From Escherichia coli (GTDB lineage: Bacteria > Pseudomonadota > Gammaproteobacteria > Enterobacterales > Enterobacteriaceae), in NCBI RefSeq assembly GCF_024223415.1, contig NZ_CP100500.1: DNA of 64,000 bases; one strand, written 5' to 3'. Positions 1,818-21,979 of this stretch are shown one piece after another (the stretch's first letter is position 1; every line of letters starts with the position of its first letter). A program made the position numbers and the translations under genes. The notes below the pieces were generated by a model that was given only the letters and a program-made list of their open reading frames with translations, had not been told where the DNA came from and did no database searches.

Positions 1818-1892
1818 GATAAAGTCCTCACAGAAAATCGGTTAAGAATGGTCCGGTAGTGGCGATAATTCTGCTCATCAGAATGCCCTGAC

Positions 1893-2114
1893 TCAGTTCA
1901 GGGTGACACTCATCAGGCGGACATACGGGCCAAAACTGTCCTTACGGCGTTCTGCAAATACAGCCAGCACACCGGGAATATCCTGCACTTCACGACCGGT
2001 ATACGCCTCAGCACTGCCGTGCCAGCGGTATTTACCGGTACAGAACGGAAAAAGACGGGATGTCGGATGTTGTTGGTGAATACGCATGGCTTCACCACGG
2101 GTGATAATTTTCAT
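1893..2114 (-). CDS. yeeT: YeeT-like protein (DUF987)
   Basis: 73-aa ORF in the conserved position between the radC-like gene and cbeA. Confidence 0.75.
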   Translation of the reverse strand: MKIITRGEAMRIHQQHPTSRLFPFCTGKYRWHGSAEAYTGREVQDIPGVLAVFAERRKDSFGPYVRLMSVTLN

Positions 2115-2176
2115 AATGGGATACCTCTGAAGACAGAAGATAAAAGTGAAAACAGGTGTGATGTGGTTGTGACGGG

Positions 2177-2668: not shown

Positions 2669-3154
2669 TCAGTCGATAATGCGCATAATGGCGCTGCATT
2701 CCGGATGCTGCAGGGCGTAATCCCGCAGCCGGTAATAATGGACCGTCATGGCATAACACTCCGTACGACAGGCATGATGACTGTACGTCATCAGACAGGC
2801 AGCAATGCCGGCGGCTTCCGGGCTCATTTCAGCGCGGTTACCGTTCATGGCATTGAACAGTACCCATGTTTCGTCATCATCGTCATCCGGTTCGGGTGCC
2901 ATAAATGCCCCGCCATTGTTCAGGGTGTACAGATTCCAGATACCACCGCAGTAGTCTTCGCACAGACGGTCCATCCAGCCGAAGACACGGGGCTCCAGGG
3001 CCACCCACTGTGGAATGAGGCCAAAGTGCTGCGGCCAGAAGCTGATGCGCTGTTCATCAGGGACTATGGTGGCAACCAGTTGAGACTGGTTATTCCCTGA
3101 TGCAACGGTTACGGAAACAGAAGGTGTGGTGGAATTATGCGAAGAGGTTGTCAT
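2669..3154 (-). CDS. Antirestriction protein (ArdB/KlcA-like, YfjX family)
   Basis: Acidic DDDDDE stretch and conserved island position; start chosen at MTTSSHN after an AGGA ribosome-binding site. Confidence 0.8.
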   Translation of the reverse strand: MTTSSHNSTTPSVSVTVASGNNQSQLVATIVPDEQRISFWPQHFGLIPQWVALEPRVFGWMDRLCEDYCGGIWNLYTLNNGGAFMAPEPDDDDDETWVLFNAMNGNRAEMSPEAAGIAACLMTYSHHACRTECYAMTVHYYRLRDYALQHPECSAIMRIID

Positions 3155-3245
3155 GAGATTATTCCTTATAAAAAGCAAATGAATGGAAGAATGCCTGGGG
3201 ACTGGTACAGACGTGAGTCAGGGCTGCACTTTCAGGGAAACAGCA

Positions 3246-4064
3246 TCAGCGCAGGCTCTCCAGCAGCGTTTCTGCCATCACCCACAATGCGCGGTTGAGC
3301 CTAATGTCCGTGTCGATGCTGTGAATGGCACGGGTGTGGATACGTTTTCCTTTAGCGCTGCGACCGGAAATCCCGCCTTTCAGCATATTCTCCTGGATGG
3401 TCTGATATGCACTCCACAGGTCCTTACCGTAATCCTCCCTGCGTCGTGGCGTCAGAATGTCGGCGGTGGTGACCGGCTGATGTTCGTCACCATAACGGTA
3501 AGTCAGTGCCGCCTGTGCCAGCGCCTGACGTGCCGGTGGCGGCAGGACCAGAGACTGCATGGCATCACGCTTTTCCTCAATCCGGTCAAAAACGCCCACT
3601 ACCTCGTAAGCCCCTTCAATGACTCTGTCCACCACATTTCCCCGGTGGGGCACACGGACTTCCCCCAGAGACTGACCGCAGACGCAGCCGTTCTGGCAGA
3701 CGAATCTGAAGTAACCCGGCAGCATCTGGTAGCTGGAGGTACCGTCATGGGAGTTGAGCAGAATAATTTCAGGGACATGTTGTCCGGTTATCTCCCCGGC
3801 CCGCCGCAGACGCAGCATGTGTCTGGTGTATCCCCGGCGGCCCGGGTCGCGCACGCGGGTCTGGCAGGCGAAGAATGGCTGAAAACCTTCCCGCTGCAGG
3901 CTTTCCAGTACGGTGATGGTGGGAATGTACGCATAGCGTTCACTGCGGGAGGTATGCCGATCTTCCCCAAAAATACTGGGTACATAGTGCATCAGTTCTT
4001 CATGTGTCAGCGGACGGTCACGGCGTATCTGGTTTACATGACCAAAACGACTTGCTAATCGCAT
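3246..4064 (-). CDS. DUF932 family protein (YfjQ/YafZ-like)
   Basis: 272-aa ORF in the conserved position downstream of the island GTPase. Confidence 0.8.
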   Translation of the reverse strand: MRLASRFGHVNQIRRDRPLTHEELMHYVPSIFGEDRHTSRSERYAYIPTITVLESLQREGFQPFFACQTRVRDPGRRGYTRHMLRLRRAGEITGQHVPEIILLNSHDGTSSYQMLPGYFRFVCQNGCVCGQSLGEVRVPHRGNVVDRVIEGAYEVVGVFDRIEEKRDAMQSLVLPPPARQALAQAALTYRYGDEHQPVTTADILTPRRREDYGKDLWSAYQTIQENMLKGGISGRSAKGKRIHTRAIHSIDTDIRLNRALWVMAETLLESLR

Positions 4065-4154
4065 GATTTGCTCCTTATGAATGAGTTAGCGGTATAAATG
4101 AAAAAGCCGCGTCTCCCGGAGAAGACGCGGCCTGACCGATGAAATGAATGACGT

Positions 4155-4388
4155 TTATTGTCTGAGAAGCCCTTCACTGGCGAGCCACGCATTAAGTTGT
4201 TTGCCGGCATCGTATTCAAAATTCCAGCACCGCCAGCGCAACTGACATTCAGCATTGTGGATAACCAGCCGGAAATGCGTTCCCTGGTCATTTTCGATAA
4301 ACACATTGCGATAAGCTGTTGTGATGGCAACCGCCTGCTCTCGAGAGAAAGGGCCTTCGGGCAATAAAACAGGGTGACAGTCCGACAT
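4155..4388 (-). CDS. UPF0401/DUF905 family small protein (YkfF-like)
   Basis: 77 aa, [13 protein letters not shown]...[10 protein letters not shown]...[15 protein letters not shown] resembles the YkfF family of CP4 islands; family from memory. Confidence 0.55.
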
Positions 4389-4393
4389 ACCGG

Positions 4394-5071
4394 CTATTTT
4401 CCGATAAATTCAACGCTGGCACCGGTGGCATTACCGTCAGCACCAACCGTGACGGTCACTTTGTCGTACGCACGGTCTTCAGGATTGAACACTTCAAACT
4501 CAACCTTATTGCCTTTTACTTCGTAAGAGCCAAAATCAGCGGTTTCTGTTGTTTCCTCGTCATATTCCCGGGCGTATGCCTGCCGGGCAGCCTGCAGGAC
4601 GGAATCTTTATTAATGGCGGGTGTCTGTTTCGGGGAAAAATCGGCAAGTGATGTGACAAATTTCGGACAGACCTTCAGCATATCACCGCGGGTGAATTCC
4701 ATTCGTACACCAAATGCCTGTAAAACGGACACATCACGCTCTGCTATGGAGTGAACGGCTTTTTTGACCATTTCCGGCGCCTGTCCGACTTCCACCTCAA
4801 CAGCCCTGAATCCTGTCTGCTGATTACACATTTGTGATGTGGGGATCAGGTTACCGTTAATATTGATACGGCTGCCCAGGAGCGTCTGTACACCATTCGG
4901 GCATCCCTGCATCAGGCCGGTAATACCAATCGTGCCATTTTTCAGCATTACCAGCGCCTGACCATCTTCCGTCATGGTCTGACACCAGCCGTTTTTGACA
5001 GCCCAGTTGCCGGCGGAGGCGGAGAATGATGCCACAGTGAACAGCAGGGGAAAAAGAATTCTGGTATTCAT
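4394..5071 (-). CDS. Secreted hypothetical protein
   Basis: 225 aa with N-terminal signal peptide ([20 protein letters not shown]); same strand and spacing as neighbouring island genes. Confidence 0.6.
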
Positions 5072-5189
5072 GACTGACCTCTGAAATTAAAGAGCGTGTT
5101 ATTGATAATGACAGACGGTATACGGCAGTGGTTACCGTAATCCGTTGTCGTGTAAAGGTATACGGTTGCCACGGGGGACTCCGGGGCGC

Positions 5190-6074
5190 TCAGAACAGGT
5201 GATCCCACAGTGTGACCAGCAGGTGGATAATGCGGTCCCGGGTTTTGCGCAGAAGCTGTAACATCCAGGCCGGAAAACTGAAACGGGCAACGGCGTCGTC
5301 AAAACTTTTCCCGATGGTTTCACCAAAAGTCTGTTGTGCGTGTTTCCGGGCCTGTTCAGAGCGGTTTTCCCCCCGGATATGTGAATAAACCGCACTGGTT
5401 GCCTGTGGTGGCAGTGCGTGGATCATCAGCGACACAAACGCCGGAAGGTTCCAGCCGACAGGTGCGGCAACGGAGAGTACCGGAAATGATGAAGGGAACA
5501 GGGTTGCCACCCGGGCTGTCACCGTCGCCAGTGAGAGCGCCTGCTGACGGGACGGGCATTTTTCTGTGTCGTTCCATTCTTCAGCAGGAAACACGCGATC
5601 GGCATGGCTGAGAACAAACAGAAAACGCGAGGGATCTGCACCTTCATTCAGTAAAAACTGATGCATGGCAATATCAGCAGCATACGCACGTTCATCAGCC
5701 CGCAGGATCCAGATAATCAGATCCAGTTCGGGCAGTAACTGACTGTAAAGTGCCCGGTATTCCTGATCATGCTGTGGTGTTTCGCCAGTGCCGGGCAGAT
5801 CGACCAGCGTCATTCTTCGTTCACCGGGCTGAAAGGTAAGACGATGAGCCTGACGGGTGCAGCCGTTCAGCGGATGCGTGGCGCAGACACGGGACTGAAA
5901 AATGGCATTGCACAGGCTGCTTTTTCCGGCACCGGATTTACCCATAATGCCAATAACGGGTTCGTACTGAATGACGCTGCGAAGATGTTCAAGGATTTTC
6001 TGGCGAATTTCTTCAGGAAGAAAGGTCAGATGTGACTTTACGTGTGCGGAGAGGGAAGAATGGCTGAATGACAT
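5190..6074 (-). CDS. Island GTPase (YeeP/YkfA/YfjP family)
   Basis: P-loop GIMGKSGAGKSS and DLPGTGE motifs; 294 aa. Confidence 0.85.
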   Translation of the reverse strand: MSFSHSSLSAHVKSHLTFLPEEIRQKILEHLRSVIQYEPVIGIMGKSGAGKSSLCNAIFQSRVCATHPLNGCTRQAHRLTFQPGERRMTLVDLPGTGETPQHDQEYRALYSQLLPELDLIIWILRADERAYAADIAMHQFLLNEGADPSRFLFVLSHADRVFPAEEWNDTEKCPSRQQALSLATVTARVATLFPSSFPVLSVAAPVGWNLPAFVSLMIHALPPQATSAVYSHIRGENRSEQARKHAQQTFGETIGKSFDDAVARFSFPAWMLQLLRKTRDRIIHLLVTLWDHLF

Positions 6075-6174
6075 ACCGTTATCCTGTTGATTTCACTGAA
6101 CCGGATCACATTAATCCGGCCTATCAGTCAGGTAATATGGACGTGAAAATTTTTCCATTGACGGGAAGAAGAGT

Positions 6175-7323
6175 ATGGCTAAAAACAAAGGTATCTGTCG
6201 GAATAAAAAATGCAGCAATCCTGTTTCAGAATTTGATGAGGCAAATGCCCTGAGGTTATGTGATGATCATTATCAGTTATGGAAACGAAATAAAGAGAAC
6301 CGTCGGGTCAGGAATATTTGTCGTATAATCAGTAAATATGACAAAAGTCTGGACCGGGAGATATTTGACAGAGTAATAGATGCTGCAAGAAATCAAACGG
6401 GAAAGAGAATTGTTGAGGACGCAAAAATATTACATCAATTGCGCAATTCAAAGCAAGTAAGAAAAAGTCTTCATAATGGAGTACTCCGGTCACGGGAATG
6501 GCTCAATACACAGGAGTTACTGAGAAGAAAAAATATATCTGTTACAGGTGACTCATTTAAATCTTACATAAAGGATATTGTCAGATTATATTGCTATAAG
6601 TTTCTCTACAGCAGAGAATATCTTAATGAAAACGCATACAAAAAACAATATCAGAGAGTTATTAACCCCAGAGAATTTAATGTTCCGATACTTCAACTTG
6701 AAGTTGCATGGATCAATAATAATTGCCGTTCAAGTGATTCAAGCTCTGATATTATCATCCTTCCCAGGATGATAAGAAGAATGGTTGTATTTAATGATAC
6801 GAAGATAAATAAACAATTAGAGGAAATGTTGGGGGGGATAGCACGAAAAAAAGTCGCAGTAAGGAATAAAGGCGGTCTCTATACCAGAATAAAAAAAGAA
6901 AATGATTTTCGTTCTATGGATAGATTTATGGTGGAAATCGAAAATATCATAAGACCTGAAATATTTCCGACATCAATTTACCCGCCTTTTTCACTTTCAT
7001 TTATCGAGAGAGAATTGCCACTACTGAATCTGGCGCACTCACAGTACAAAAGAGCAATAAGTAAAAAAGTGGCGAATTCAATTTTTTATACTTTGCGAAA
7101 AACTCACGTGGCATTATGGCTGCATCTTGAAATGTTTGCTCTTGTGGCATTCATCAAACTGTATACAGGAAAAGGGTTTGAATTCATGAAAAACATGTGT
7201 GTATTTATAGATTATGATAAAGGGATAATAAAATCCACGCATGAAGAACTGCTGAGTGAAATTAAGTGTAACATTCAGTTGAATTTAAAGGTGAATCCTG
7301 ATAATTTTCCTGAATTAATATAA
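6175..7323 (+). CDS. Orphan hypothetical protein, 382 aa, AT-rich
   Basis: Long uninterrupted ORF in markedly AT-rich DNA; N-terminal Cys/His cluster (C8, C13, C29, H32), Lys/Arg-rich body, hydrophobic segment near the C-terminus; no family recognised by eye. Confidence 0.6.
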   Translation: MAKNKGICRNKKCSNPVSEFDEANALRLCDDHYQLWKRNKENRRVRNICRIISKYDKSLDREIFDRVIDAARNQTGKRIVEDAKILHQLRNSKQVRKSLHNGVLRSREWLNTQELLRRKNISVTGDSFKSYIKDIVRLYCYKFLYSREYLNENAYKKQYQRVINPREFNVPILQLEVAWINNNCRSSDSSSDIIILPRMIRRMVVFNDTKINKQLEEMLGGIARKKVAVRNKGGLYTRIKKENDFRSMDRFMVEIENIIRPEIFPTSIYPPFSLSFIERELPLLNLAHSQYKRAISKKVANSIFYTLRKTHVALWLHLEMFALVAFIKLYTGKGFEFMKNMCVFIDYDKGIIKSTHEELLSEIKCNIQLNLKVNPDNFPELI

Positions 7324-7984
7324 ATATACAATTCATGCTTTAGTAAAAATATATTGTTGTATGATGTTCAGGATGATGGTTTTAAATGGTGTTTATGATG
7401 TGAAAATATTAAATTTATATTACATTTTAATTATCGACAAAAAACACATAAAGAAATCTAAAGGGAATGAGCGTCAAATGAGCTGATATAGCGCCAGTTT
7501 GGTATGGTCATGTGATTTGATGATTAAAGCTTACGGATAATAACACTCCTCTGTGAGCCATATAAATGAGCATGCCATAATCGTCAGTTCAGAGATAAAA
7601 CTGACTGAATGATCTTATGTTATAGTAAGCAGTGTTTACCGGATACGATGACTTATCTCTCTCACATCATATGGATTCACTTTCATGGGGTAAAGCGATG
7701 GGACTACAGACGCTGATTATGATGGTTTGCTGTAAAGTTAGCACAAGTTTTTGCTGTACAGAATACGGAGTAAGAAAAATAATTCCAGAGTAAATCTGCT
7801 CTGCTTTTGAACAGAAAAGATTCATGCTTACCGTGAAAAACTGAAACCAACATTCAGTCTGCATGGATGTCTTAAGATGTTGAGAATGTCGGATATGGTA
7901 TTATATACACCTTTTCCATTAGGTCCTTTTATGTTTTCATTAAGTCGTTTTGTATGTATTCCTCCAGTGATTCATTAGTGCCTG

Positions 7985-8640
7985 TTTACGCATTTACACA
8001 CTTTTCCCATTAATCTCCTTTAAATGTGTTTCATTACGCATTGCTGTACACATTTTTGAACTGATACACATCCAAGTTAGTAAACCTGTCAGTTCTGATT
8101 TTACGTTAACTAAATCAGTTTAATGCTGCTGTAAAACAATCCTTCCTGTTTAAGCAATCAATCTGCTATTCGATTTTACTGATGTGACGTTTAACCTTTC
8201 CTGAGCTTTGGTTGTTTGTGGTTTTTGGTTTGTGTTTCGACGTTAAGCTGAGAAAAGTATCTTTACGCTAAATCAACCCGAACTTTCCTGAGGTGATCTG
8301 ACGTTCTTTTCGATGTGCTTACGACGATTCTGTTAAACGACTTTCTGGATGTTTTGATAACAATCAGATTGAGGCATTAACGATTCCTGACGTTTTGCTT
8401 TTTCATGTAAGGTCATTGTTTTCGTCATGATGTGGTTTTTCTTCTTGCATTGCGAAAGTGTGATGATTGGTTTTGGTTTTTTGATTCAGATGAGATTTAC
8501 GTTATCGATGGTTAATCGTTTTTATGGTGAGTAGTGAAACGTAACATTTTCGGGATGAGAAAATCGATTCTGATGGTGATGGGGATGATCGTGTTACGGC
8601 GTTATCTGTAAACAGGTTTTAAACGTGTCATTCGCATTCG
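7985..8640. repeat. Array of about 11 short ACGTT/ACGCT-core motifs plus CTTTCCTGAG-type repeats in AT-rich non-coding DNA
   Basis: Motifs such as TTACGTT, GACGTT(T/A/C), TTACGCT recur every 30-60 bp; no ORF of 60 aa or more spans the region. Confidence 0.45.
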
Positions 8641-8981
8641 TGATTGAGTTGTGTGATTAAGCTGTAGGTTTTGGCGTTGTTGTTGATTTGCATTGCCAGG
8701 AAGCGTTCTGGTTGCGTTTCTGGTGTTTTGTTCGAATGTTCTGTGGATCCTTTTCCCTTCAGGCTTTTCTCGTCGTCCATGTCGTTTTTAAATCCATTCA
8801 TGCTGTTGTTGCGTGTTTTGCTGCTGTGTGCAGGATTATCTTTTCGTTCCGGGATGGTTTGTTCCGTTTCAATCACTCTTAATCAGAGAGTTGTAGCATT
8901 GCTTAATGACATGATGCCGTAAAGTTTTACCGCGGTGATTAATGATGTGAAGTCAATCCAAATCAACGGAGATCTCTCATC

Positions 8982-9713
8982 ATGAATCAACCAATACACA
9001 ATGCTTACTGGTTATCCCGTTTTGACAGCCTTCTCGACAGTGCCCTGTCGCAGCACCGTGCCGTCTCGTTAATCCGGGTGGATTTACGTTTCCCTGAGTA
9101 TATGCCTGTCACCATCATGGATCCCGATCCGGATTCAGCGGTGATTTCTCGTTTTTTCGAATCCCTGAAAGCCAAAATCCAGGCTTACCAGCGGAAAAAA
9201 CGACGTGCCAACAAGCGTGTGCGTGCAACCACTCTGCGTTATTTCTGGTGTCGGGAGTTTGGCAAGGAAAAAGGCAGGAAACATTATCACGTGATATTGC
9301 TGCTCAACAAAGATACCTGGTGCTCGCCAGGGGATTTCAGCGAACCATCTTCGCTGGCGACGATGATCCTGGAGGCATGGTGCAGCGCCCTGCATCTTGA
9401 GGCCTGGCAAGGCGATGGCCTGGTCCATTTTTCCAGGTGGACGCCTTCCCGTAAACCAGCATCGTCTGATGCTCGCCCTTCTTCCGATGACACGCCTTTG
9501 TCGGGTGGATGTTCTGATACCAGGAAGGCTTCAGAAAAAAAGCCGGGTGAAGCCGCTGTTCTCTGGATCAAGCGTGGTGATGTGGAAGCGCTGCAGAAAG
9601 CCCGGAACAGAGCCAGTTATCTCGTGAAATATGAGACGAAGCAGCATGACGGTTCCGGGCAACGTAATTATGGTTGCAGTCGTGGGCCGGGGCGTCTGCT
9701 GGATGGCAGGTGA
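8982..9713 (+). CDS. Inovirus Gp2-family protein (YagK/YfjJ-like), copy 1
   Basis: 243 aa; HYHVILLLN motif typical of Gp2-family island proteins; preceded by a conserved leader motif. Confidence 0.8.
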   Translation: MNQPIHNAYWLSRFDSLLDSALSQHRAVSLIRVDLRFPEYMPVTIMDPDPDSAVISRFFESLKAKIQAYQRKKRRANKRVRATTLRYFWCREFGKEKGRKHYHVILLLNKDTWCSPGDFSEPSSLATMILEAWCSALHLEAWQGDGLVHFSRWTPSRKPASSDARPSSDDTPLSGGCSDTRKASEKKPGEAAVLWIKRGDVEALQKARNRASYLVKYETKQHDGSGQRNYGCSRGPGRLLDGR

Positions 9714-10039
9714 GCCCTGTAAAACGACATCCGGTGCCTGAGCTTATGCTACAGGACGTTGGCTGACGCCCTTAGCTCGTTTTCTGAAAAAGTCGTCCTG
9801 AAGTCATGCAACGGTATTTTTCTCTGCTTTCGCTCCTGGAAACACTCCGTCGGTAAAACCTTACTGTCCTGCTTAATGATGTGAACCGAAGTCAACGGAG
9901 ATCATTCATTCTGAACCTGCATCCGGTGTTCTGTCCCTTGTCGGTTACCTGATCTTCCCGTTCTGCCGCGGTTTTTCACTTATTCCATCAACCCCATACG
10001 CAAGCCATAACACGTCAGCGCATCCACGGGCAGGACGCG

Positions 10040-10642
10040 TTGTGGGCTGCGTATAACGGAACATATCTTATGAATGCTATCCCTTATTTCGACTATAGCA
10101 TGGCGCCCTTCTGGCCATCTTATCAGAACAAAATCATCGGCGTTCTCAACCGTGTGTTGCGCGAGCAGTCCTGCTCCCGAATACGGCGGATCCTGCTTCG
10201 TCTGCCGGGGGAACATGGCAACATCTTCAGCGACAGAAAAACCTGGTTCGGTATGGCCTTTATCGAAACCGTCAGTGCGCTGATGAATGCAACACCCGGA
10301 CGTGACCTCTGCTGGCTCCTGACTCGTCATCCTGAAAAACCGGAATACCACGTGGTGCTGTGCGTCAGACAGGAGTATTTCGACGGCCCTGAACTGGATC
10401 GGCTGATTCTGGATGCCTGGAGCAACGTACTGGGCTTCGCGTCACCGGGTGAAGCGGCACCGTACCAGAAACAGATAACCCGGGATGTGGTGCTGGACAG
10501 TTGTTCACCGGACTGCGAAGAGAGACTCAAAGAGCTGATATGGGCGTTCAGTGATTTCGCCCGCGATCATCGTGGTGTGCGCGATCCGGAAGCCCGTTAC
10601 CTCGCCGGTAATCCCTGGTATCCCGTAGCAGGCCAGCTCTGA
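10040..10642 (+). CDS. Inovirus Gp2-family protein (YagK/YfjJ-like), copy 2
   Basis: Paralogue of 8982-9713 (EYHVVLCVRQ motif); true start may be the internal Met near 10070. Confidence 0.75.
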   Translation: MWAAYNGTYLMNAIPYFDYSMAPFWPSYQNKIIGVLNRVLREQSCSRIRRILLRLPGEHGNIFSDRKTWFGMAFIETVSALMNATPGRDLCWLLTRHPEKPEYHVVLCVRQEYFDGPELDRLILDAWSNVLGFASPGEAAPYQKQITRDVVLDSCSPDCEERLKELIWAFSDFARDHRGVRDPEARYLAGNPWYPVAGQL

Positions 10643-10710
10643 AAGCTCAGCTCAGCAGATTCACCCGCATTTGCCCAACATTCATAAATCTCACAGAGGA
10701 CATTCTGACC

Positions 10711-10947
10711 ATGTTGACCTCAATGACAGGTCACGACAGCGTATTGCTGCGTGCCGACGATCCCCTGATCGACATGAACTACATCACCAGCTTCACTGGT
10801 ATGACCGACAAATGGTTTTACAAGCTGATCAGTGAAGGCCATTTCCCTAAACCCATCAAACTGGGGCGCAGCAGCCGCTGGTACAAAAGTGAAGTGGAGC
10901 AGTGGATGCAGCAACGAATCGAGGCATCACGAGGGGCAGCAGCATGA
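10711..10947 (+). CDS. alpA: AlpA-family phage/island regulatory protein
   Basis: 78 aa with HTH and conserved WYKSEVEQWMQQR C-terminus. Confidence 0.75.
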   Translation: MLTSMTGHDSVLLRADDPLIDMNYITSFTGMTDKWFYKLISEGHFPKPIKLGRSSRWYKSEVEQWMQQRIEASRGAAA

Positions 10948-11057
10948 AACGTGTTGTAATGCCGGTACGCTGGCAATGTGCAAAATACCAGCGTTGGTAT
11001 TGTGGAAGCCGGCCCTGTCCCTGGTGCTGGCGACACTCCCGCTCATCTTTCTGCTGA
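10944..11057 (+). CDS. Small Cys/Trp-rich peptide (37 aa), possible zinc-ribbon protein
   Basis: ATG overlaps the alpA stop (ATGA coupling); MKRVVMPVRWQCAKYQRWYCGSRPCPWCWRH has a C-x7-C-x4-C-x2-C pattern; below the ORF-track cutoff, read by eye. Confidence 0.35.
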   Translation: MKRVVMPVRWQCAKYQRWYCGSRPCPWCWRHSRSSFC

Positions 11058-11149
11058 CACCCTCTGGTCAGCCAGCGGACTATCGTCCTTTCCTGACCGA
11101 TTCGTCATTCCATTCTTATTGATTATAACTGGCATTACACCGGTGCCGG

Positions 11150-11760
11150 CGTGCTTTTCTGTAGATCTGCACCGGTTTAACAAAATTCGACAAGGTTTGA
11201 AGGAGTATTCTGTGCAAATAAGCGAGGCCCTAATTTCAGAACCGGGGAAAATCCAGCGTTTTGTTCAGCAGGCGGTGGACCACTAGCCGCGTCTGCTGGC
11301 AGTCCACTTCACGCTTGATTCGGCTGAAGGGAATATTGACGAGGGGCAGATTCATGCATTCTGTACTGCCTTTTACCGACAGGTGCACGAGCGTATTACT
11401 GAACGTAATCACACGGCCAGCCCATCCTCGCCGGTGGTATTACGCTGGTTGCGGGAACAACATGGAGGAGCAACAATACGATGCCTGTTGCTGTTCAGCC
11501 AGGAGCTTTTCTGCCATCCGCGAGCCAGTGTGACAGTTGATGAAGAATGTTCACAACTGGTGGATTTACTACAACAGACTTGGCAGGTGATAAGCGCTGG
11601 CGGACAATGCCGGGTGGAAAAGCGTTTTCAGGTCGTCCGGGGTGATACATCTGGCCAGTATGTTGCGTTAAAAACAGTCGCATTGTCTCTGGGGTTACCG
11701 GTTGTGATCGCCATTACCCATCGTCCGGTACAGCGCTGTACATTGATTACAGCTCAGTGA
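11150..11760 (+). pseudogene. Gp2-family gene, copy 3, frameshifted
   Basis: Gp2-like segments (LLAVHFTLD..., ...HGGATIRCLLLFSQE) spread over three overlapping frames. Confidence 0.5.
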
Positions 11761-12882
11761 ATCAGCGCAGTTGTGCAGTCAACGAGGTTTTCTGGCTTTT
11801 CGTCGGTCATTCAGCATCATTAAACGGGTCTCTGCCTCTTTCTGTTCCTGTGGTGTCACTTCCCCGCACGGCTGACCGTTCAGGTTGTAACGGGCGCCAC
11901 CTGCTATTAACGCACGGTAATAGCGCGGAGACTGCACATAAGACGCCACTGCTGCATGTAATGTACCAGCGCCAAACGCCAGTTCTCGGATGGCGATATC
12001 CTGTATCAGGTCGTCAGGTATCCCCACTTTAAGTGGTTTTGTTTTTTTCCCGGTTGAATGACTCAGGCCAGAGTTCCACAAGACGAATAATGCGCTTACG
12101 GTTTTTGCTCTGGCGTTTTGTCATGTCGCCACGGTGTTTTATCAGCAGGTTTCTGTTTATCGTTCAACTGTGGTATCTGGTCACCGGCCTTCATTTTGTA
12201 TGCTGTGTCCGTTTTATTCTGCAGCGGCGTTGCCGGTGATTTACTGAAAATACCCTGCGGTTTACGGTTAATGGTCAGAGTTACCATCAATTTTGTTACC
12301 TCGCGCTGTCAATGGAAGTAGTACCTCATCCGATATCTGAAAATGTTTTCCGGTGGATGTTACAGCGAATTTCATGTAAGACATGTTGTTGTCGGTATTG
12401 TTCAGTACTGTGCGTTGTGAGCGTATTCGTTATCAGACAGAGGGGCAGGGAACAAACGTCAGAGGTTAAGGATATCCGGGAACAAATGGCGTAAACGGAC
12501 ATCTCAGTGCCTGAGAAACAGTACAGGTCAGGCCATCATGGCCTGCAAACAGAGCCCTGGCGACCCCGTGGCCGAAAACGAAACAATAACCCGCGCGCAG
12601 TGCGAGGAATCCGGATGTGAAGCAATCAGCAGGTAATATTAATGGCAGGACCAGCAGGTTCTTTAAACAAACGAACATGCTGTAATTGATATTTTGCTTA
12701 TTGTATTTTCTTTTTAGTTATTAAATTAATTTATTTACGAAAAATTTTCTGCAGATACAGGATGGGAATTCAGGGTGTCATCACGCCTTATGATGACACC
12801 CTTCCCCTGGTTGTGGAAAACCGAAGGATATATCAGGTTCAGCAACAAAATCAGTGAGCTGAAAGATACCAGTCCCCCAGCT

Positions 12883-13902
12883 TCAGCAGCTTTCACGTAA
12901 ACATAAACAGGGCTCAATGAATATCTGATTGCTCCAGTTACCTTCTTTAATTCGTTCCAGCAAAACATTTCCTGCTTCCAGACCAATTTTCCTGTGAGGA
13001 ACGGCCATTGTTGTTAATGATGGTTGGCAAACTTTGCTGACGTCACTGTCACCAAATCCTACTACGGCGAGCTCGTCTGGAACTTTGATCCGTCTTCGTT
13101 GACATTCATAGAGAACACCGCAGGCTAACTCATCTGACACACATACCAGGGCATCCAGTTCCGGCCATGCGAGCAAAAATTCCGGTAGTTGTGATGCTCC
13201 GGTGGAAAAAACAGGTGGCAGAGCAGCGTTAATAACACGGTTGGGAGACATATGATGGCGTAACATAGCTTTATACCATCCCTGTAAATGCTGCTGAAAG
13301 ATCCACTGTTCCTGGTTAGCGCATAGCAAACCGATATTCTGATAACCACGTTGTACCAGCATATCCGTCAGCTCGAACATTGCTGCAACATTATCAATAC
13401 CAATGTTGATATCTATCGGATCAGTACGAATGGCACCGATTTCTATAACAGGAATCGAGGCATTTTTGAGCAAGTGACGCACGGTACTATTATGCTCAAC
13501 ACTAAGCAAAATTGCTGCAGCGATATTAGAAGCCAGCAGGGTTTCCAGCAGTTTTTCTTCTTGTTCCAGACGATGGCGTGACTCAGCCAGGATTATTTGA
13601 TACCCCGCTGGTTGTAGCACATGTTGCAGCCCGGCAAACATTTCCGTGCATCCCGCTTCAGCCAGGTTTGGCACGACCATTGCGATCGTGTGTGAAGATG
13701 CCGATGCCAGTGCGCTTGCAGTGAGGTTGGGCATATACCCTAATTCATTAACTGCGGCTTCAATCTTCTCCCGCAATTTATCTGAAACTTGTTCGGGAGT
13801 GCGTAACGCTCTGGATACAGTCATTGTGCCAACTCCCGCGAGTTGCGCGACATCAGCAATAGTGACTTTACCTGTACTACGACGTTTTCGGGTTATTGCC
13901 AT
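12883..13902 (-). CDS. LacI-family transcriptional regulator
   Basis: 339 aa; N-terminal HTH VTIADVAQLAGVGTMTVSRAL and periplasmic-binding-like body; divergent from the PTS/transketolase operon. Confidence 0.85.
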   Translation of the reverse strand: MAITRKRRSTGKVTIADVAQLAGVGTMTVSRALRTPEQVSDKLREKIEAAVNELGYMPNLTASALASASSHTIAMVVPNLAEAGCTEMFAGLQHVLQPAGYQIILAESRHRLEQEEKLLETLLASNIAAAILLSVEHNSTVRHLLKNASIPVIEIGAIRTDPIDINIGIDNVAAMFELTDMLVQRGYQNIGLLCANQEQWIFQQHLQGWYKAMLRHHMSPNRVINAALPPVFSTGASQLPEFLLAWPELDALVCVSDELACGVLYECQRRRIKVPDELAVVGFGDSDVSKVCQPSLTTMAVPHRKIGLEAGNVLLERIKEGNWSNQIFIEPCLCLRESC

Positions 13903-14034
13903 ACAAAATCCTGCTCAGCGACTACATATGGAGATCTTTTATTACTTATCATCAACGGCTTCCTGCACTGCCAGTAGCAGAGTATACCTCTTAATATCTG
14001 CCATAAGTCTGGATTTAATCAGTGAAATCTATTT

Positions 14035-14082
14035 TGATAGCGCTATCACAAATTCGAACAATACCTCCTGATAGCGCTATCT
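14035..14082. promoter_or_regulatory. Two LacI-type operator palindromes (TGATAGCGCTATCA)
   Basis: Perfect 14-bp palindrome at 14035-14048 and a 13/14 copy at 14069-14082 in the divergent intergenic region. Confidence 0.5.
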
Positions 14083-14153
14083 TTGTGATATTGATCGCAG
14101 ATATACCGTCGTTACTTGAATACATTCTGGTCATATAAATAAGAAATTAGGGG

Positions 14154-14603
14154 GTGGGAGTGCTTAATATCTGGCTTTCTGATTCAACAATCGCATTACG
14201 AAAGAATGCCGCAACCTGGCAGCAGGCATTAGATATCTGTGCCAGACCGTTACTGGATGCAGAGATAATTACGACGGATTATCTCAGTGCGATAAAGACA
14301 CAACATGAAAAACTGGGGCCTTATTATGTCCTGGCACCCGGGCTGGCCATGCCGCATGCCCGACCAGAAGAAGGGGCAAAAGGATTAGGTTTATCATTAT
14401 TAAAACTTGAAGAAGGTGTCAGTTTTCATACAGAGGAATTTGATCCTGTAGATGTTATCATTTTACTTGCCGCACCAGACAAACACAGTCATATCGAAAT
14501 GATATCTGCACTGGCTGAGTTATTCTCCAGCGAAAAAGATTTACATGAATTGCATCAGGCTTGCAATGTGGAGGAAATAAAAAAGATAATTTCACGGTTC
14601 TGA
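14154..14603 (+). CDS. PTS ascorbate-family EIIA component (UlaC/SgaA-like)
   Basis: PYYVLAPGLAMPHARPEEG active-site region; GTG start at 14154 or 14160. Confidence 0.8.
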   Translation: MGVLNIWLSDSTIALRKNAATWQQALDICARPLLDAEIITTDYLSAIKTQHEKLGPYYVLAPGLAMPHARPEEGAKGLGLSLLKLEEGVSFHTEEFDPVDVIILLAAPDKHSHIEMISALAELFSSEKDLHELHQACNVEEIKKIISRF

Positions 14604-14681
14604 TTACATTATAAATTCAGTCTTTTCACAACATTGCGCCGTTGCGTGATGGGACTTCTTCAACTTAAAATGGTGAATATA

Positions 14682-14954
14682 ATGAAAATTATGGCTATTT
14701 GTGGCTCAGGGCTTGGTAGTAGTTTTATGGTCGAAATGAATATTAAAAAAGTTCTGAAAAAAATGGATATAGAGGCGGAAGTGGAACATTCCGATCTCTC
14801 ATCAGCAACGCCAGGGGCTGCCGATTTATTTGTGATGGCCAAAGATATTGCTGCCAGTGCCAGCGTACCGGAAAGTCAGTTGGTGGTTATCAACAACATC
14901 ATTGATATTAATGAACTCGAAACGCAACTGCGTAACTGGTTAGCAAAACAATAA
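14682..14954 (+). CDS. PTS ascorbate-family EIIB component (UlaB/SgaB-like)
   Basis: MKIMAICGSGLGSS with catalytic Cys; start placed at the ATG at 14682. Confidence 0.8.
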   Translation: MKIMAICGSGLGSSFMVEMNIKKVLKKMDIEAEVEHSDLSSATPGAADLFVMAKDIAASASVPESQLVVINNIIDINELETQLRNWLAKQ

Positions 14955-14970
14955 CCTTAATTGAAGCGAG

Positions 14971-16365
14971 GTGGATATGTTTATCCTTGAAACGCTGAAT
15001 TTTGTTGTTGATATACTTAAAGTGCCCGCGATACTGGTCGGCTTGATTGCCTTAATTGGTCTGGTTGCCCAGAAAAAATCTTTTTCAGATGTTGTTAAAG
15101 GTACAATTAAAACTATTCTCGGCTTTATTGTACTGGGCGGTGGTGCCACTGTTTTGGTTGGTTCGTTAAATCCTCTTGGGAGTATGTTTGAACATGCCTT
15201 TAATATTCAGGGCATCATTCCGAATAATGAGGCTATTGTTTCTATTGCGCTGGAAAAATATGGCGCATCGACGGCCCTTATTATGGCATTTGGTATGGTG
15301 GCGAATATTATTGTTGCCCGCTTTACCCGCCTTAAATATATCTTCCTGACCGGACACCACACATTTTACATGGCCTGCATGATTGGTGTGATTCTGACAG
15401 TGGCTGGTTTTGAAGGTATATCACTGGTCTTTACCGGTTCTCTTATTCTGGGACTTGTGATGGCATTTTTCCCGGCATTAGCACAACGCTATATGAAGCG
15501 TATTACGGGGAATGATGACATTGCTTTTGGTCACTTTGGCACTCTGGGATATGTACTTTCTGGCTGGATTGGCAGCGTGTGCGGTAAAGGTTCCCGCTCC
15601 ACCGAAGAGATGAATTTGCCCAAAAATCTGAGCTTCCTGCGCGACAGTTCCATCTCTATTTCTCTTACGATGATGGTGATTTATCTGATCATGGCGATCA
15701 GTGCTGGTCGTGAGTTCGTTGAAAGCCAGTTCAGTGGTGGTCAAAACTACCTTGTCTACGCCATCATAATGGCCATCACCTTCGCTGCTGGTGTATTTAT
15801 TATTCTGCAAGGCGTGCGTTTAATCCTTGCTGAAATAGTTCCGGCATTTACCGGGTTTTCAGAAAAGCTGGTGCCGAATGCCCGTCCGGCCCTCGATTGC
15901 CCGGTTGTGTATCCGTATGCGCCAAACGCAGTGTTAGTTGGTTTCTTGTTTAGCTTTTTTGGCGGTCTGGTAGGGCTATTTTTGTTGGGACAGATGAAAC
16001 TGGTGTTGATTCTTCCGGGTGTCGTTCCTCACTTTTTTACCGGGGCGGCTGCTGGCGTATTTGGTAACGCTACGGGGGGACGTCGTGGCGCAATGATTGG
16101 TGCTTTTGCGAATGGCTTATTGATTACCTTCCTGCCTGTACTGTTATTGCCGGTTCTTGGGGCGATAGGCTTTGCTAATACGACCTTTTCCGATGCAGAT
16201 TTTGGTGCTGTCGGCATCGTCCTCGGAAACCTGGCACGTTATCTCTCACCTTTTGCCATCACCGGACTTGTAGTAGCGCTATTTGTGCTGCTGGTTGCCT
16301 GGAACATTTTCGCCAGTAACAAAATCGCTGCCAAAGCGCAGAAGAAGAGTGGAGCCAAATCATGA
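14971..16365 (+). CDS. PTS ascorbate-family EIIC permease (UlaA/SgaT-like)
   Basis: 464-aa polytopic membrane protein immediately after EIIB. Confidence 0.85.
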   Translation: MDMFILETLNFVVDILKVPAILVGLIALIGLVAQKKSFSDVVKGTIKTILGFIVLGGGATVLVGSLNPLGSMFEHAFNIQGIIPNNEAIVSIALEKYGASTALIMAFGMVANIIVARFTRLKYIFLTGHHTFYMACMIGVILTVAGFEGISLVFTGSLILGLVMAFFPALAQRYMKRITGNDDIAFGHFGTLGYVLSGWIGSVCGKGSRSTEEMNLPKNLSFLRDSSISISLTMMVIYLIMAISAGREFVESQFSGGQNYLVYAIIMAITFAAGVFIILQGVRLILAEIVPAFTGFSEKLVPNARPALDCPVVYPYAPNAVLVGFLFSFFGGLVGLFLLGQMKLVLILPGVVPHFFTGAAAGVFGNATGGRRGAMIGAFANGLLITFLPVLLLPVLGAIGFANTTFSDADFGAVGIVLGNLARYLSPFAITGLVVALFVLLVAWNIFASNKIAAKAQKKSGAKS

Positions 16366-17192
16366 ATGTTAAAGAATTGACTCAATTTGCACGGGATATA
16401 CGTATCCAGACGCTTAAATCATTAACTCATCTCGGCTTCGGTCATTATGGTGGCAGCATGTCGGTTGTGGAAACGCTGGCAGTGCTTTATGGCGCTGTAA
16501 TGAAAATTGATCCTGCTGCTCCCGACTGGCCTGAGCGTGACTATTTTATCCTGTCCAAAGGACATGCCGGACCTGCTCTCTACAGTACTCTGGCGCTGAA
16601 AGGCTACTTTCCACTGGAAGAATTAAGCACCTTAAATCAGAACGGAACCCGCTTACCAAGTCATCCGGATCGGCTAAAAACGTGTGGTGTTGATAGCACC
16701 ACAGGATCGCTGGGGCAGGGGATATCCATTGCCGGAGGGATGGCGCTGTCGCATAAACTGGCGGGGCGCAAGAATCGGGTTTTTTGTATTGTCGGCGATG
16801 GCGAACTTAATGAAGGCCAATGTTGGGAAGCTTTCCAGTTTATCGCGCATCATCGTTTGAATAACCTCACTGTGTTTGTGGACTGGAACAAACAGCAGCT
16901 TGATGGTCAACTGGATGAAATTATTAATCCATTTGATTTGGAAGGAAAATTCCGGGCTTTCGGTTTTGATGTCGTGACAGTGAAGGGCGATGATATTGAG
17001 GGCTTGTTGAATGTAGTTAAACCTGTCCTGCCAGCTGAGGCCAGACCGAGAGTGGTCATTCTCGATAGCATTAAAGGGCAGGGGGTGCCGTGTCTCGAGC
17101 AACTCAGTAATTCTCATCACTTACGCCTCACAGAAGAGATGAAGGGGACGCTAAACGAAACAATTCGCCAACTGGAGGCTATGCATGATTAA
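16362..17192 (+). CDS. Transketolase, N-terminal (TPP-binding) subunit
   Basis: GHYGGSMS and GDGELNEGQ motifs; 4-bp overlap with EIIC; resembles the split transketolase of ExPEC tkt1 islands. Confidence 0.85.
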   Translation: MNVKELTQFARDIRIQTLKSLTHLGFGHYGGSMSVVETLAVLYGAVMKIDPAAPDWPERDYFILSKGHAGPALYSTLALKGYFPLEELSTLNQNGTRLPSHPDRLKTCGVDSTTGSLGQGISIAGGMALSHKLAGRKNRVFCIVGDGELNEGQCWEAFQFIAHHRLNNLTVFVDWNKQQLDGQLDEIINPFDLEGKFRAFGFDVVTVKGDDIEGLLNVVKPVLPAEARPRVVILDSIKGQGVPCLEQLSNSHHLRLTEEMKGTLNETIRQLEAMHD

Positions 17193-18138
17193 TCTCGCAC
17201 CGGCAGGACAAAAAGACAGCATTGAAATGCGCAAAGTTTATGCAGATTTTATCGCGCAACAGAGTAAAAACGTCAGTTCTGTCATTGCTCTTGAGGCTGA
17301 TTTAATGAGTTCCATGGCAATGGACAGCGTGGCGCAGGATTATCCAGATCACGTCATTAATTGCGGCATTATGGAAGCCAATGTTATCGGCACAGCTGCA
17401 GGGCTGGCCTTAACCGGGCGCAAGCCATTCGTGCATACCTTTACCGCATTTGCCAGTCGTCGCTGTTTTGATCAACTCTTTATGTCGCTTGATTACCAGG
17501 GCGCTAACGTCAAAGTTATAGCTTCTGATGCGGGTGTTGCTGCTTGCCACAATGGCGGAACACATATGTCATTTGAAGATATGGGAATTGTGCGCGGGCT
17601 GGCGCATTCGGTGGTGATGGAGATGACAGATGCCGTAATGTTCAGCGATATCTTGCGTCAACTCGTTGCACTGGAAGGATTTTATTGGATTCGTACCATT
17701 CGGAAGCAAGCAGCGAGTATTTACGCACCAGGTACAACCTTTACAATTGGCAAAGGGCAGGTATTACGTGAAGGTACGGATGTCACCTTAATTGCTAATG
17801 GCATTATGGTGGTGGAAGCCCTGGAGGCCGCACGTCAACTTGAGCTGGCTGGGGTAAGTGTAGCGGTGATTGATATGTTTACGCTCAAACCCGTTGATCG
17901 GATGTTAATTAAAAATTATGCCGAAAAAACAGGACGGATCGTAACATGTGAAAACCATAGTATTCATAATGGATTAGGTTCAGCGGTTGCTGAAGTGCTT
18001 GTAGAAACTTGTCCTGTGCCCATGCGTCGGGTGGGGGTTAAAGAGCGGTATGGCCAGGTTGGAACTCAGGACTTTTTACAGAGAGAGTACGGGTTAACCG
18101 CGCAAGATATTGTGGCGGCAGCCAGAGAGCTATTGTAA
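17185..18138 (+). CDS. Transketolase, C-terminal subunit
   Basis: 317 aa, pyrimidine-binding and C-terminal domains; overlaps the upstream subunit by 8 bp. Confidence 0.85.
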   Translation: MINLAPAGQKDSIEMRKVYADFIAQQSKNVSSVIALEADLMSSMAMDSVAQDYPDHVINCGIMEANVIGTAAGLALTGRKPFVHTFTAFASRRCFDQLFMSLDYQGANVKVIASDAGVAACHNGGTHMSFEDMGIVRGLAHSVVMEMTDAVMFSDILRQLVALEGFYWIRTIRKQAASIYAPGTTFTIGKGQVLREGTDVTLIANGIMVVEALEAARQLELAGVSVAVIDMFTLKPVDRMLIKNYAEKTGRIVTCENHSIHNGLGSAVAEVLVETCPVPMRRVGVKERYGQVGTQDFLQREYGLTAQDIVAAARELL

Positions 18139-18256
18139 TTCATGGAGTTTGTTTACCATTCTGTTTTTCTTAAAAGTGAGTGTCTGTGCGGTCACTAAAC
18201 TCGGTAATAAAGCAGTTCATTGCAGGATAAGAAGCGTTTGGTTGTGTCGTTTTACC

Positions 18257-18507
18257 GTAAGAACCGACCGCCGTATGTAGCCATTAAGCCAGTATTGGTA
18301 ACGTAGGTGCCCACCTTTTCAAACTGGTGGACGCCTGTTATGGAGCAAAAACATTATCCGCAGAACCCCGCAGATCATTTTCAAATGAGTTAAACTTCAA
18401 ATGGTTAAACTGGTTTTGCAACCAGGAGCCTCTGTTGCCCGTATTGCCCGGGAACACGATATCAATGATAACCTCCTGTTCAAATGGCTCAGACTCTGGC
18501 AGAACGT
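18257..18507 (+). mobile_element. IS66-family left-end fragment (terminal repeat plus truncated orf1)
   Basis: GTAAGAACCGACCGCCGTATGTAGCCAT matches the left ends at 31477 and 37679; encodes ...IAREHDINDNLLFKWLRLWQN then similarity stops. Confidence 0.6.
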
Positions 18508-18593
18508 AAGGTAAAGGGAGATGAAAAAGGCAATAGCAGAACTGAGTGACAGTGAAACCATTCTGGCGTACAGGGTTGGATGGTGAAACTGAT

Positions 18594-18626
18594 AAAAAAA
18601 CCCCTCTGAAAATTCTGTCAGAGGGG
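18594..18626 (-). terminator. Rho-independent terminator-like hairpin (minus strand)
   Basis: 9-bp perfect stem CCCCTCTGA/TCAGAGGGG followed on the minus strand by a T7 run. Confidence 0.45.
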
Positions 18627-19365
18627 TGTAGTCAATAAGGGTGTCATATTCAACATGAAGATGTCTTCTGGGAATGTTTACATAGCAAATGCTTTCACTC
18701 CGGTAATTAATTTCCGTGATTAACTGCTTTCGATCAATAAAGGAATTGCAAAAGTGTGATCTTGTTCACGACATTGTGGATGATAATATGCCTGATGTCT
18801 GAATCCGGAAACAGTGCTCTGGCGGGTTTCATGTGAAGTTGACGGATAAAAAATCCTCACGACCAGACAGACGTGCGGTTTACGAAATTCGTAACAAGAG
18901 GCTTTTCTACGGATCACGTGGTGCGTGCCACGTGAAATTTTTGTAGCGCAAAATGTGTGATGTGTAAATACAGGAAGGAAAAAAGTTAAATCGGTGGAAG
19001 TCCATACCTGCCACGTGTACGTCTGCATTCCTCGTTTTGAACAGAATTCTCACCAGACATCGTGAATTTCTCATTCAATCATCAGAGATATTAACCAGGA
19101 TTTTTATTGTTTTGTGATAGCAGTACTTTAAATGTTCAGATGCTAAAATAAGCGCGCTTATTATAATTATAGTTATGATGTTTTATCTGTATGTATTTTA
19201 ATGATTTTCGCGTCATTGCTTTTCTGCTGCTTAAATTGAGGGCGCATATTATACACAATAATATTCCTGGTATTATTAAATTAATAAAAGAGGATTCTTA
19301 TCACTGTATTTTTGCTCCGCACTACCGTTCTGGCTGGTGAAGTAATAATACAGGAGAATAACAGA

Positions 19366-20601
<1,236 letters not shown>

Positions 20602-21117: not shown

Positions 21118-21501
21118 TGTATCTTATATTGTGATATCGGTGCTGCTGCTGTTATTTTTTGTTGTATTTGTGACGAATGGTTAAGAATAAAACATGAGCT
21201 GGTGATTATCAGGACAGGTTGCTTGTATATGAAGATAACAAAGGCGGCATTTATTTTTGCGCTGTCAGTGTGGAGTGTTGCTGTGATATGTCTTTTATTA
21301 TTTGTACTGATTGTTCTGGGATAGCCATAGTGAAATAAAAAGCTGTCTGAATTAAATTATTTTGCACACATATTTTAATTCTGCACTGAATTCAGAATGG
21401 GTAATCAGTGACCGTCCTGACGGTCACTTTAAAGAAAAGGCATTTACACAGAATGGTAAACAGGTTAAGTCAGCAGAATATCACGGTTAGCACGATGGCT
21501 G

Positions 21502-21840
21502 TCATTCGGCCGATGAACAGTTGCTTAAGACAGGATTATCATTCCCTTCCACCAGATTGGCTTTTTTCCCTTTTGTGTACAGTTTATATGAGTATCTTTT
21601 ATTGATGGCTTCGTAATTGGCTCCGGAGGCCATTTTCATAAGCTGCATAGGTATCATCTCATCCATCTGATTAATCACTGCATATGAGTTCCCAGCAGTG
21701 GTGTTGATATAGACCACCTCCATTGTCTTATTTCCATTACAGACATAAGCTGTTTTTGAGATTTCTTTTGTGGCAGCGGAGGATACCATACTGCTGCTAA
21801 CAAGAATGAGTGCAAGGACGGGAGAAGAGTATTTTTTCAT
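21502..21840 (-). CDS. PliC/MliC-family lysozyme inhibitor-like periplasmic protein
   Basis: 112 aa, signal peptide, conserved Y-x-C ... SGA-x-Y ... NC pattern resembling E. coli MliC. Confidence 0.55.
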   Translation of the reverse strand: MKKYSSPVLALILVSSSMVSSAATKEISKTAYVCNGNKTMEVVYINTTAGNSYAVINQMDEMIPMQLMKMASGANYEAINKRYSYKLYTKGKKANLVEGNDNPVLSNCSSAE

Positions 21841-21979
21841 AATAACTCCTTCTGTAGGTTAAAAAAACAGGTGTTTGATCAGAATTATATTAATAATTCA
21901 TTCATCAGAAAAAAAGGTTTTTGTTATAGCAATAATAATGAGCACAATTGCTTGTGAAACTGGTGCCATTTTACGGTTG

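Follow-up and report, generated by a model that had tools for sequence, protein, structure and literature searches.

The stretch analysed here, 64,000 nucleotides of Escherichia coli contig NZ_CP100500.1 (assembly GCF_024223415.1) and referred to below as the window, contains at positions 12883-18138 a six-gene cassette that combines a phosphotransferase system (PTS) with a split transketolase. A LacI-family regulator gene is located on the minus strand, and the divergent plus-strand operon encodes EIIA, EIIB, EIIC and the N and C subunits of transketolase, termed TK-N and TK-C, in this order. The open reading frame (ORF) listing, the Pfam and NCBIfam scans and the PGAP annotation of the identical copy in strain IMT5155 agreed on all six genes, and the gene set and coordinates given in an earlier reading of this DNA, hereafter the original prediction, proved to be exact.

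The regulator gene (12883-13902, minus strand, 339 aa) is annotated by PGAP as a LacI family regulator and is the predicted repressor of the operon. Its N-terminus contains the HTH_LacI domain PF00356 (residues 14-59, E = 1e-19) and its effector domain is of the type I periplasmic-binding-protein-like kind (PF13377 and PF00532), which bears out the proposal that a LacI-family regulator lies adjacent and divergent to the operon. Matches to solved LacI-family structures reached E = 4e-49. The top NCBIfam models were GntR, IdnR and CytR, each of them scoring under its cut-off, and the helix-turn-helix is almost invariant across 81 orthologues.

EIIA (14160-14603, plus strand, 147 aa, PF00359, PTS_EIIA_2) starts with a GTG at 14160 according to PGAP, and a GTG at 14154 is an alternative start codon. 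The protein is 41% identical to UlaC, keeps the motif APGLAMPH, and has its phosphoryl-carrier His66 at the position of UlaC His68. In EIIB (14682-14954, plus strand, 90 aa, PF02302), the N-terminal AICGSGLGSS aligns with AVCGNGQGSS of UlaB, so that the phosphoryl-carrier Cys7 corresponds to UlaB Cys9. EIIC (14977-16365, plus strand, 462 aa) belongs to the L-ascorbate (SgaT/UlaA) family, matching PF03611 at 510 bits and the NCBIfam model NF009549 at 989 bits, with a cut-off of 890. A PF03611 EIIC, separate PF02302 EIIB and PF00359 EIIA proteins and the conserved carrier cysteine and histidine together place the system in the PTS L-ascorbate (SgaT/UlaA) family, TC 4.A.7.

The transketolase is encoded by TK-N (16362-17192, plus strand, 276 aa, PF00456), the thiamine pyrophosphate-binding subunit, and TK-C (17185-18138, plus strand, 317 aa, PF02779 and PF02780), which comprises the pyrimidine-binding and C domains; the two lie side by side, as in other split-gene transketolases. 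Because the EIIC stop overlaps the TK-N start by 4 bp and TK-N overlaps TK-C by 8 bp, these three genes may be translationally coupled. The closest solved relative of TK-N is the split transketolase of C. hydrogenoformans (6YAK), and TK-C matches the split transketolase chain 6YAJ with E = 1e-70. TK-N keeps the equivalents of His26, His66, His100, Asp155, Asn185 and His261 of E. coli TktA, TK-C keeps those of Arg358, Ser385, Glu411, His473 and Arg520, and as judged from these alignments all cofactor and catalytic residues are kept.

In TktA, His461 and Asp469 contact the phosphate and the C2-OH of the acceptor. These two canonical substrate-channel residues are not kept in TK-C, in which His461 is replaced by Asp and Glu468-Asp469 by His-Asn (motif SDAGVAACHNGGTH), a pattern that is invariant in 68 orthologues. 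We considered the exchanges of His461 for Asp and of Asp469 for Asn as evidence for a new substrate and set them aside. Because the Asp...Asn pattern marks a large transketolase subfamily, some members of which sit in apparently housekeeping contexts, no conclusion on specificity was drawn from it.

A UniRef name beginning 'Apulose-4-phosphate transket' on one Pseudocitrobacter orthologue of TK-C prompted a comparison with AptA and AptB, the apulose-4-phosphate transketolase of the D-apiose cluster of E. coli SE15 (ECSF_RS02710/15; PMC13001218). The identity of only 39% for the A and 28% for the B subunit, and the different context, led us to reject this assignment. In SE15 the two genes are located at positions 21231-22989 of locus L085, in the D-apiose cluster beside entD, and this split transketolase of E. 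coli ST131/ST14 is unrelated to that of the cassette.

The original prediction matched the gene set to an accessory island reported from extraintestinal pathogenic E. coli (ExPEC), that of the tkt1 type. Both loci hold an accessory transketolase gene beside a PTS gene, and both occur on islands of ExPEC or avian pathogenic E. coli (APEC) strains (PMC3349570). However, tkt1 of APEC O1 (APECO1_2641) is a single 1998-bp gene for 665 aa on a 16-kb island between metE and ysgA, where its neighbours are a sugar isomerase gene (hxlB), a glucose-type (ptsG-like) IIBC, RpiR and LysR regulators, a permease, a carbamate kinase and yahEFG-like genes (PMC3349570). We confirmed this layout in the current RefSeq annotation. 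In BLASTP comparisons, Tkt1 was 31% identical to TK-N and barely alignable with TK-C, and the DNA of the tkt1 island had no match within the window. Among 5426 complete E. coli genomes, the tkt1 segment was present in 1135 and the cassette in 132. The comparison with published tkt1 islands that had been suggested as a check thus returned a different gene content, which the original prediction had itself named as contradicting its claim. Gene content, protein identity and the missing DNA match rule out that the cassette is the tkt1 island, and we attach next to no credence to a tkt1-type origin. Because tkt1, aptAB and the present cassette, which as described below is of the tktC type, are distinct, E. 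coli accessory genomes contain at least three extra transketolase loci.

The region between the regulator gene and EIIA contains two palindromic sites, both described by the original prediction as perfect. This is correct for the first, O1, which has the sequence TGATAGCGCTATCA (14035-14048) and is the only perfect copy in the window. The second, O2 (TGATAGCGCTATCT, 14069-14082), is spaced 34 bp from O1, carries one mismatch (13 of 14 positions match) and is a perfect palindrome only in its 12-bp core GATAGCGCTATC. At up to two mismatches the window contains three matches, compared with a mean of 0.14 in dinucleotide shuffles. Because 1 of 100 shuffles equalled this count of three, shuffling supports the palindromes only weakly, and we regard conservation across species as decisive. 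The third and weaker match, TGATATCACTATCA with 2 mismatches at 35681-35694, lies inside a TonB-dependent receptor ORF (34785-36755) and is probably a chance occurrence.

To assess conservation, a regulator-based scan of 100,044 species genomes was performed, which resulted in 80 loci, and 79 intergenic regions of 216-356 bp were compared, all from Enterobacterales, representing about 78 species with regulator identities down to 73%. O1 is identical in all 79 regions, and the invariant block reaches position 14050; O2 is likewise present in every region as TGrTAGCGCTATCT, 34 bp from O1 in 64 and 35 bp in the remaining 15. The sequence around both sites is mostly unconserved. Their shape, TGnnAnCGnTnnCA with a central CG, is the LacI-family form. 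Because of this shape and the invariance across about 78 species, O1 and O2 are very probably the operators of the regulator, as had been proposed. Exactly two operator cores were found in 78 of 81 loci of ~15 kb each, which indicates a local regulon.

A candidate CRP site (14081-14102), suggested by conservation, abuts O2; its core TGTGA-N6-TCGCA spans 14084-14099 and is centred at 14091.5. The left half reads TGTGA in 66 of the 79 regions, the right half follows TC[A/G]C[A/G] in most, and 14 species have the perfect core TGTGA-N6-TCACA. Downstream, TACATT (14121-14126, plus strand) is a candidate -10 hexamer of the PTS operon promoter, with a predicted start near 14133. T1, A2 and T6 of this hexamer are invariant, it reads TAAAGT in 63 species, and in 76 of the 79 regions a fixed 29.5 bp separates a TAnnnT hexamer from the middle of the CRP-like site. 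In class II CRP-dependent promoters, CRP is centred at -41.5 and the -10 element occupies -12 to -7. The candidate CRP site and -10 hexamer have this spacing, as would be expected of a class II promoter. A start near 14133 would place O2 at about -57.5 and O1 at about -91.5, and both operators would be located upstream of the core promoter instead of over it.

For the divergent regulator gene, TATACT on the minus strand (13981-13986), with a predicted start near 13974, is a plausible -10 element. It forms part of the block AGTATAC, which is conserved in the alignment of the 79 regions, and neither operator overlaps it. No good -35 was found upstream of TATACT (13986-13981).

The consensus scan itself returned another promoter for the operon, TTGATA (14034-14039) and AACAAT (14057-14062) separated by 17 bp, for which O1 would lie over the -35 element and O2 at the transcription start. 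Such classical occlusion would give textbook repressor geometry, the promoter is the only plus-strand promoter-like match of the scan in the intergenic region, and the downstream TGTGA-N6-TCGCA would then be unrelated or serve a second promoter. However, promoter-like sites in the scan were no more common than in shuffled sequence (14 versus 10.9 +/- 3.3), and it is the downstream TAnnnT hexamer and the CRP-like site that are conserved at a fixed spacing. Because its AACAAT -10 element is not conserved in the alignment (per-column identity 0.1-0.8), we do not favour this promoter and retain it as a rival only, improbable in our estimation.

The original prediction termed the PTS ascorbate-type, which stands at the level of the family (PF03611, NF009549) and does not extend further. 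EIIC is 27-29% identical to K-12 UlaA. The residues of UlaA that contact vitamin C are T86, Y87, H135, I136, Q139, H194, Q195, D314, I358, F362 and M410 (PMC6048161). EIIC keeps H135, H194, D314 and F362 of these 11 contacts and has a conservative I358V exchange, and the remaining 6 are replaced (T86N, Y87E, I136H, Q139Y, Q195F and M410T). The six replacements are invariant in 73 enterobacterial orthologues and the same in two EIICs from Firmicutes, and the UlaA transport and phosphotransfer residues G58, G286 and R288 are retained. Because EIIC differs from UlaA at 6 of the 11 contacts, ascorbate is unlikely to be its substrate; the pocket points to one well-defined ligand other than ascorbate, and its glutamate would argue against an anionic one. 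We agree with the original prediction in assigning no sugar to the system.

We weighed whether the cassette could serve as a second L-ascorbate uptake system, in which UlaG, UlaD, UlaE and UlaF of the host would convert ascorbate-6-phosphate into xylulose-5-phosphate and the split transketolase would increase the capacity of the pentose phosphate pathway. In agreement with this, the NCBIfam model passed by EIIC is named 'PTS ascorbate transporter subunit IIC', EIIA resembles UlaC as described above, and GntR and IdnR, the closest named relatives of the regulator, sense sugar acids. In Streptococcus pneumoniae, ascorbic acid acts through UlaR2 to raise expression of the homologous ula2 operon (ulaR2-ulaB2-ulaA2-tktN-tktC) 2-3 fold (Afzal et al. 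2015, PMC4324149). On the other side stand the replaced contacts with their invariance in both phyla, the pocket glutamate, which fits an anion poorly, the distance of EIIC from UlaA, and a cassette without ulaG, ulaD, ulaE or ulaF genes. The pneumococcal induction is small and could stem from a breakdown product of ascorbate. On balance, a second ascorbate system appears improbable to us.

Among the genera that carry the locus, the scan of the 100,044 genomes found Citrobacter, Klebsiella, Raoultella, Enterobacter, Kosakonia, Lelliottia, Cedecea, Mixta, Mangrovibacter, Serratia, Rahnella, Erwinia and others, as well as Salmonella arizonae and other Escherichia species. The six genes keep their order in every sufficiently long locus (about 75 species). 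In most loci the cassette is located between pta, with or without yfcC, and yfcD-yfcE-yfcF-yfcG-folX-yfcH, a position that was seen in Escherichia whittamii (positions 8024-2769 of locus L002), E. albertii and S. arizonae. In K-12 (L093), yfcC and yfcD are adjacent. Because none of the 5426 complete E. coli genomes contains the ancestral junction of TK-C with yfcC, we consider E. coli to be without the locus at the ancestral site. The 132 genomes with the cassette (about 2.4%), many of them from poultry or avian pathogenic strains, carry it on a mosaic island among insertion sequence (IS) remnants.

In a comparison with the E. whittamii chromosomal locus, homology spans window positions 12879-18139 with 93.4% nucleotide identity, that is, from stop codon to stop codon. 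Because homology is confined to this segment, the limits given in the original prediction are those of the mobilised cassette. A terminator-like hairpin directly past the regulator stop codon (12857-12882, minus strand), seen in the consensus scan only, is located almost wholly outside the segment shared with the ancestral locus. A search of positions 11000-20000 against Rfam gave no match. As part of our joint best explanation, we consider it likely that the E. coli cassette is a horizontally re-acquired copy of the pta/yfcC-yfcD locus.

Proteins of the S. arizonae locus are 74-94% identical to those of the window, and the 90%-identity clusters of its transketolase subunits include many S. 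enterica serovars, Typhimurium among them. In Salmonella LT2, STM2340/STM2341 beside pta encode TktC, the third Salmonella transketolase. Because of the position beside pta and the S. enterica members of these clusters, the cassette is, on the evidence of synteny and identity, an orthologue of the Salmonella tktC locus. Shaw et al. (2018, J Biol Chem 293:11271) reportedly found that TktC, together with TktA and TktB, sustains the pentose phosphate pathway in Salmonella. To our knowledge, that work does not describe operators, a CRP site or a PTS substrate.

Because the search for TK-C homologues was filled by close orthologues, distant relatives were taken from representatives of 50%-identity clusters. 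Two metagenomic contigs from Firmicutes (L089 and L091) encode TK-C homologues with 65 and 56% identity and EIIC proteins with 70-72% identity. Both keep the order EIIA-EIIB-EIIC-TKN-TKC with no extra enzyme, and a gene for a PRD-containing activator replaces the LacI-type gene. Because these identities are unusually high for a comparison across phyla, they suggest that the five-gene module was transferred laterally not very long ago and that its regulator was exchanged. The retention of the gene order without an extra enzyme leads us to regard the PTS and the transketolase as a module of two functions.

The transketolase could also be mainly a stress or housekeeping isoenzyme that, as TktC, would contribute to the pentose phosphate pathway, and its link to the PTS would then say little about a dedicated pathway. 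Members of the Asp...Asn subfamily in housekeeping contexts of Firmicutes fit such a role, and a passage in PMC12651746 cites the TktC study for an RpoS-type regulation of tktC. However, because the five-gene order from PTS to TKN and TKC is kept across phyla, the reading frames overlap and a dedicated regulator is present, we view the genes as one functional unit and rate the isoenzyme explanation as very unlikely.

Taken together, we consider it probable that the genes form a self-contained catabolic cassette for a sugar, consisting of a PTS and a transketolase, controlled by the repressor and activated by CRP. The sugar would be taken up and phosphorylated at the expense of phosphoenolpyruvate by EIIA, EIIB and the Asc-family EIIC, and the co-translated split transketolase would pass the product into the pentose phosphate pathway. 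In neither phylum does the module come with a further conserved enzyme, which is most simply explained if the transketolase acts on the PTS product directly; this product could be, for instance, a ketose with a phosphate at the terminal hydroxyl. The promoter, with its -10 at 14121-14126 and a start near 14133, would be weak and would need CRP at -41.5. As long as inducer is absent, LacI-family repressor dimers would occupy O1 (about -91.5) and O2 (about -57.5), and the repressor at O2, which abuts the CRP site, would exclude CRP or the C-terminal domain of the RNA polymerase alpha subunit, as GalR at gal OE. Induction would follow when the phosphorylated sugar, or the sugar as such, frees the operators of repressor. 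In this form the operon would be an ordinary repressor-controlled PTS operon, probably activated by CRP. Gene content, domain families, catalytic residues, synteny, the conserved cis elements and the separation from tkt1, AptAB and UlaA were established here; that the repressor binds, that CRP is required, where transcription starts, what kind of inducer acts and which class of substrate is used are inferred.

Several points weigh against this explanation. The E. coli CRP-like site deviates by one mismatch (TCGCA) from TGTGA-N6-TCACA, and the -10 hexamer TACATT differs from the common TAAAGT. The promoter, the CRP site and the transcription start were derived from conservation and geometry alone, the consensus scan by itself selected the occluded promoter TTGATA-17-AACAAT, and repression from operators upstream of the core promoter is the less common arrangement. 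Because the host has TktA and TktB, a canonical product would not strictly require a transketolase of its own. In addition, the sole induction data for a homologous module, those for S. pneumoniae ula2, point to ascorbate (PMC4324149).

A more specific and tentative version, which we consider possible and rather less likely than not to hold in full, is that the PTS and the transketolase constitute a complete two-step pathway for a neutral ketose for which no E. coli system is known. Phosphorylation of the terminal hydroxyl would be the task of the Asc-family EIIC, and the transketolase would use the product directly as ketol donor. The conservation of the module from Enterobacterales to Firmicutes, with an invariant binding pocket that is not that of UlaA, is consistent with this version. 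Candidates would be D-xylulose, sedoheptulose and L-erythrulose, the latter from the decay of ascorbate, and this version would also account for the weak 'ascorbate' induction of pneumococcal ula2. Naming xylulose, sedoheptulose or erythrulose as the substrate is speculation.

Upstream of the cassette, positions 1-12500 comprise a CP4-type island backbone, according to the annotation of matching genomes, with genes for DUF4942, the CbtA/YeeU toxin-antitoxin system, RadC, an antirestriction protein, DUF932, a GTPase, an inovirus Gp2-like protein and a ProQ/FinO-family protein. The segment 6001-8000 is AT-rich (35% GC). The island is located at tRNA-Sec in APEC E19035 and was reported beside tRNA-Phe in IMT5155. 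In APEC IMT5155, the cassette was mentioned within the 94-kb PAI I5155 as a putative transketolase-like protein beside an ascorbate-specific PTS (PMC4232414).

Directly downstream of TK-C lies a short ORF (18327-18509) whose counterpart in IMT5155 and E19035 is annotated as a truncated transposase with a frameshift, and in some strains an ISEc22 element of the IS66 family interrupts the matched region. Positions 19312-20601 encode a YadA-like trimeric autotransporter adhesin of 429 aa, which has an (AQ)n stretch close to its N terminus and three tandem repeats of ~35 aa that are almost identical. Because the length of this gene differs between strains (1359 nt in IMT5155 and 1194 nt in E19035), a variation in repeat number is suggested. 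A second accessory sugar cluster at 22345-25580 encodes a nanE-like N-acetylmannosamine-6-phosphate epimerase, a MalX-like PTS IIC(B) of the glucose/maltose family and a divergent RpiR/MurR regulator, and a phytase-like esterase gene comes after it at 25737-27080.

With these results, the cassette belongs with the Salmonella tktC and pneumococcal ula2 loci and is to be kept apart from tkt1, the ExPEC marker; the word 'ascorbate' in its annotation is no assignment of substrate. It represents an orphan carbohydrate module that is very small, highly conserved and widespread in gut- and plant-associated Enterobacterales and in Firmicutes. The two operators, the CRP site and the -10 hexamer, conserved across about 78 species, provide a compact and testable regulatory model. 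For the population biology of E. coli, the ancestral site is without the locus in this species, and about 2.4% of the complete genomes carry it again, on a pathogenicity island.

Compared with known systems, the cassette resembles the tkt1 island in that an accessory gene of the transketolase type lies close to a PTS gene in ExPEC strains, and differs from it in that tkt1 is a single full-length gene on another island, with another PTS family and other regulators. AptAB is likewise a split transketolase that serves one dedicated sugar pathway and is encoded on accessory E. coli DNA, but it has another substrate-channel motif, and the Apt cluster, which has no PTS, encodes oxidoreductases as well as a kinase and an ABC transporter, neither of which is present in the cassette. 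With UlaABC of E. coli it shares the PTS family and the conserved EIIB cysteine and EIIA histidine, whereas the gene order is A-B-C instead of C-B-A and the regulator is of the LacI type instead of the DeoR-type UlaR.

In the gal operon, GalR at OE, centred at -60.5, is located beside CRP at -41.5. The predicted control of the cassette is similar in that a LacI-family site, here at about -57.5, lies directly upstream of a CRP site at -41.5 and a second operator is present; however, the second gal operator is within the first gene, while here it would be upstream at about -91.5, and the sites of the cassette are predicted. We know of no looping partner or HU requirement for the cassette regulator. 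The pneumococcal ula2 operon is alike by its gene architecture, in which the split transketolase comes after an Asc-family PTS and no further enzyme is encoded, but its control is through a PRD-containing activator where the cassette has a repressor of the LacI family, and strain D39 is without a separate EIIA gene. The Salmonella tktC locus, represented by S. arizonae, encodes orthologous proteins in six genes that keep the order LacI-EIIA-EIIB-EIIC-TKN-TKC, at pta/yfcC-yfcD in S. arizonae and on a mosaic island in E. coli.

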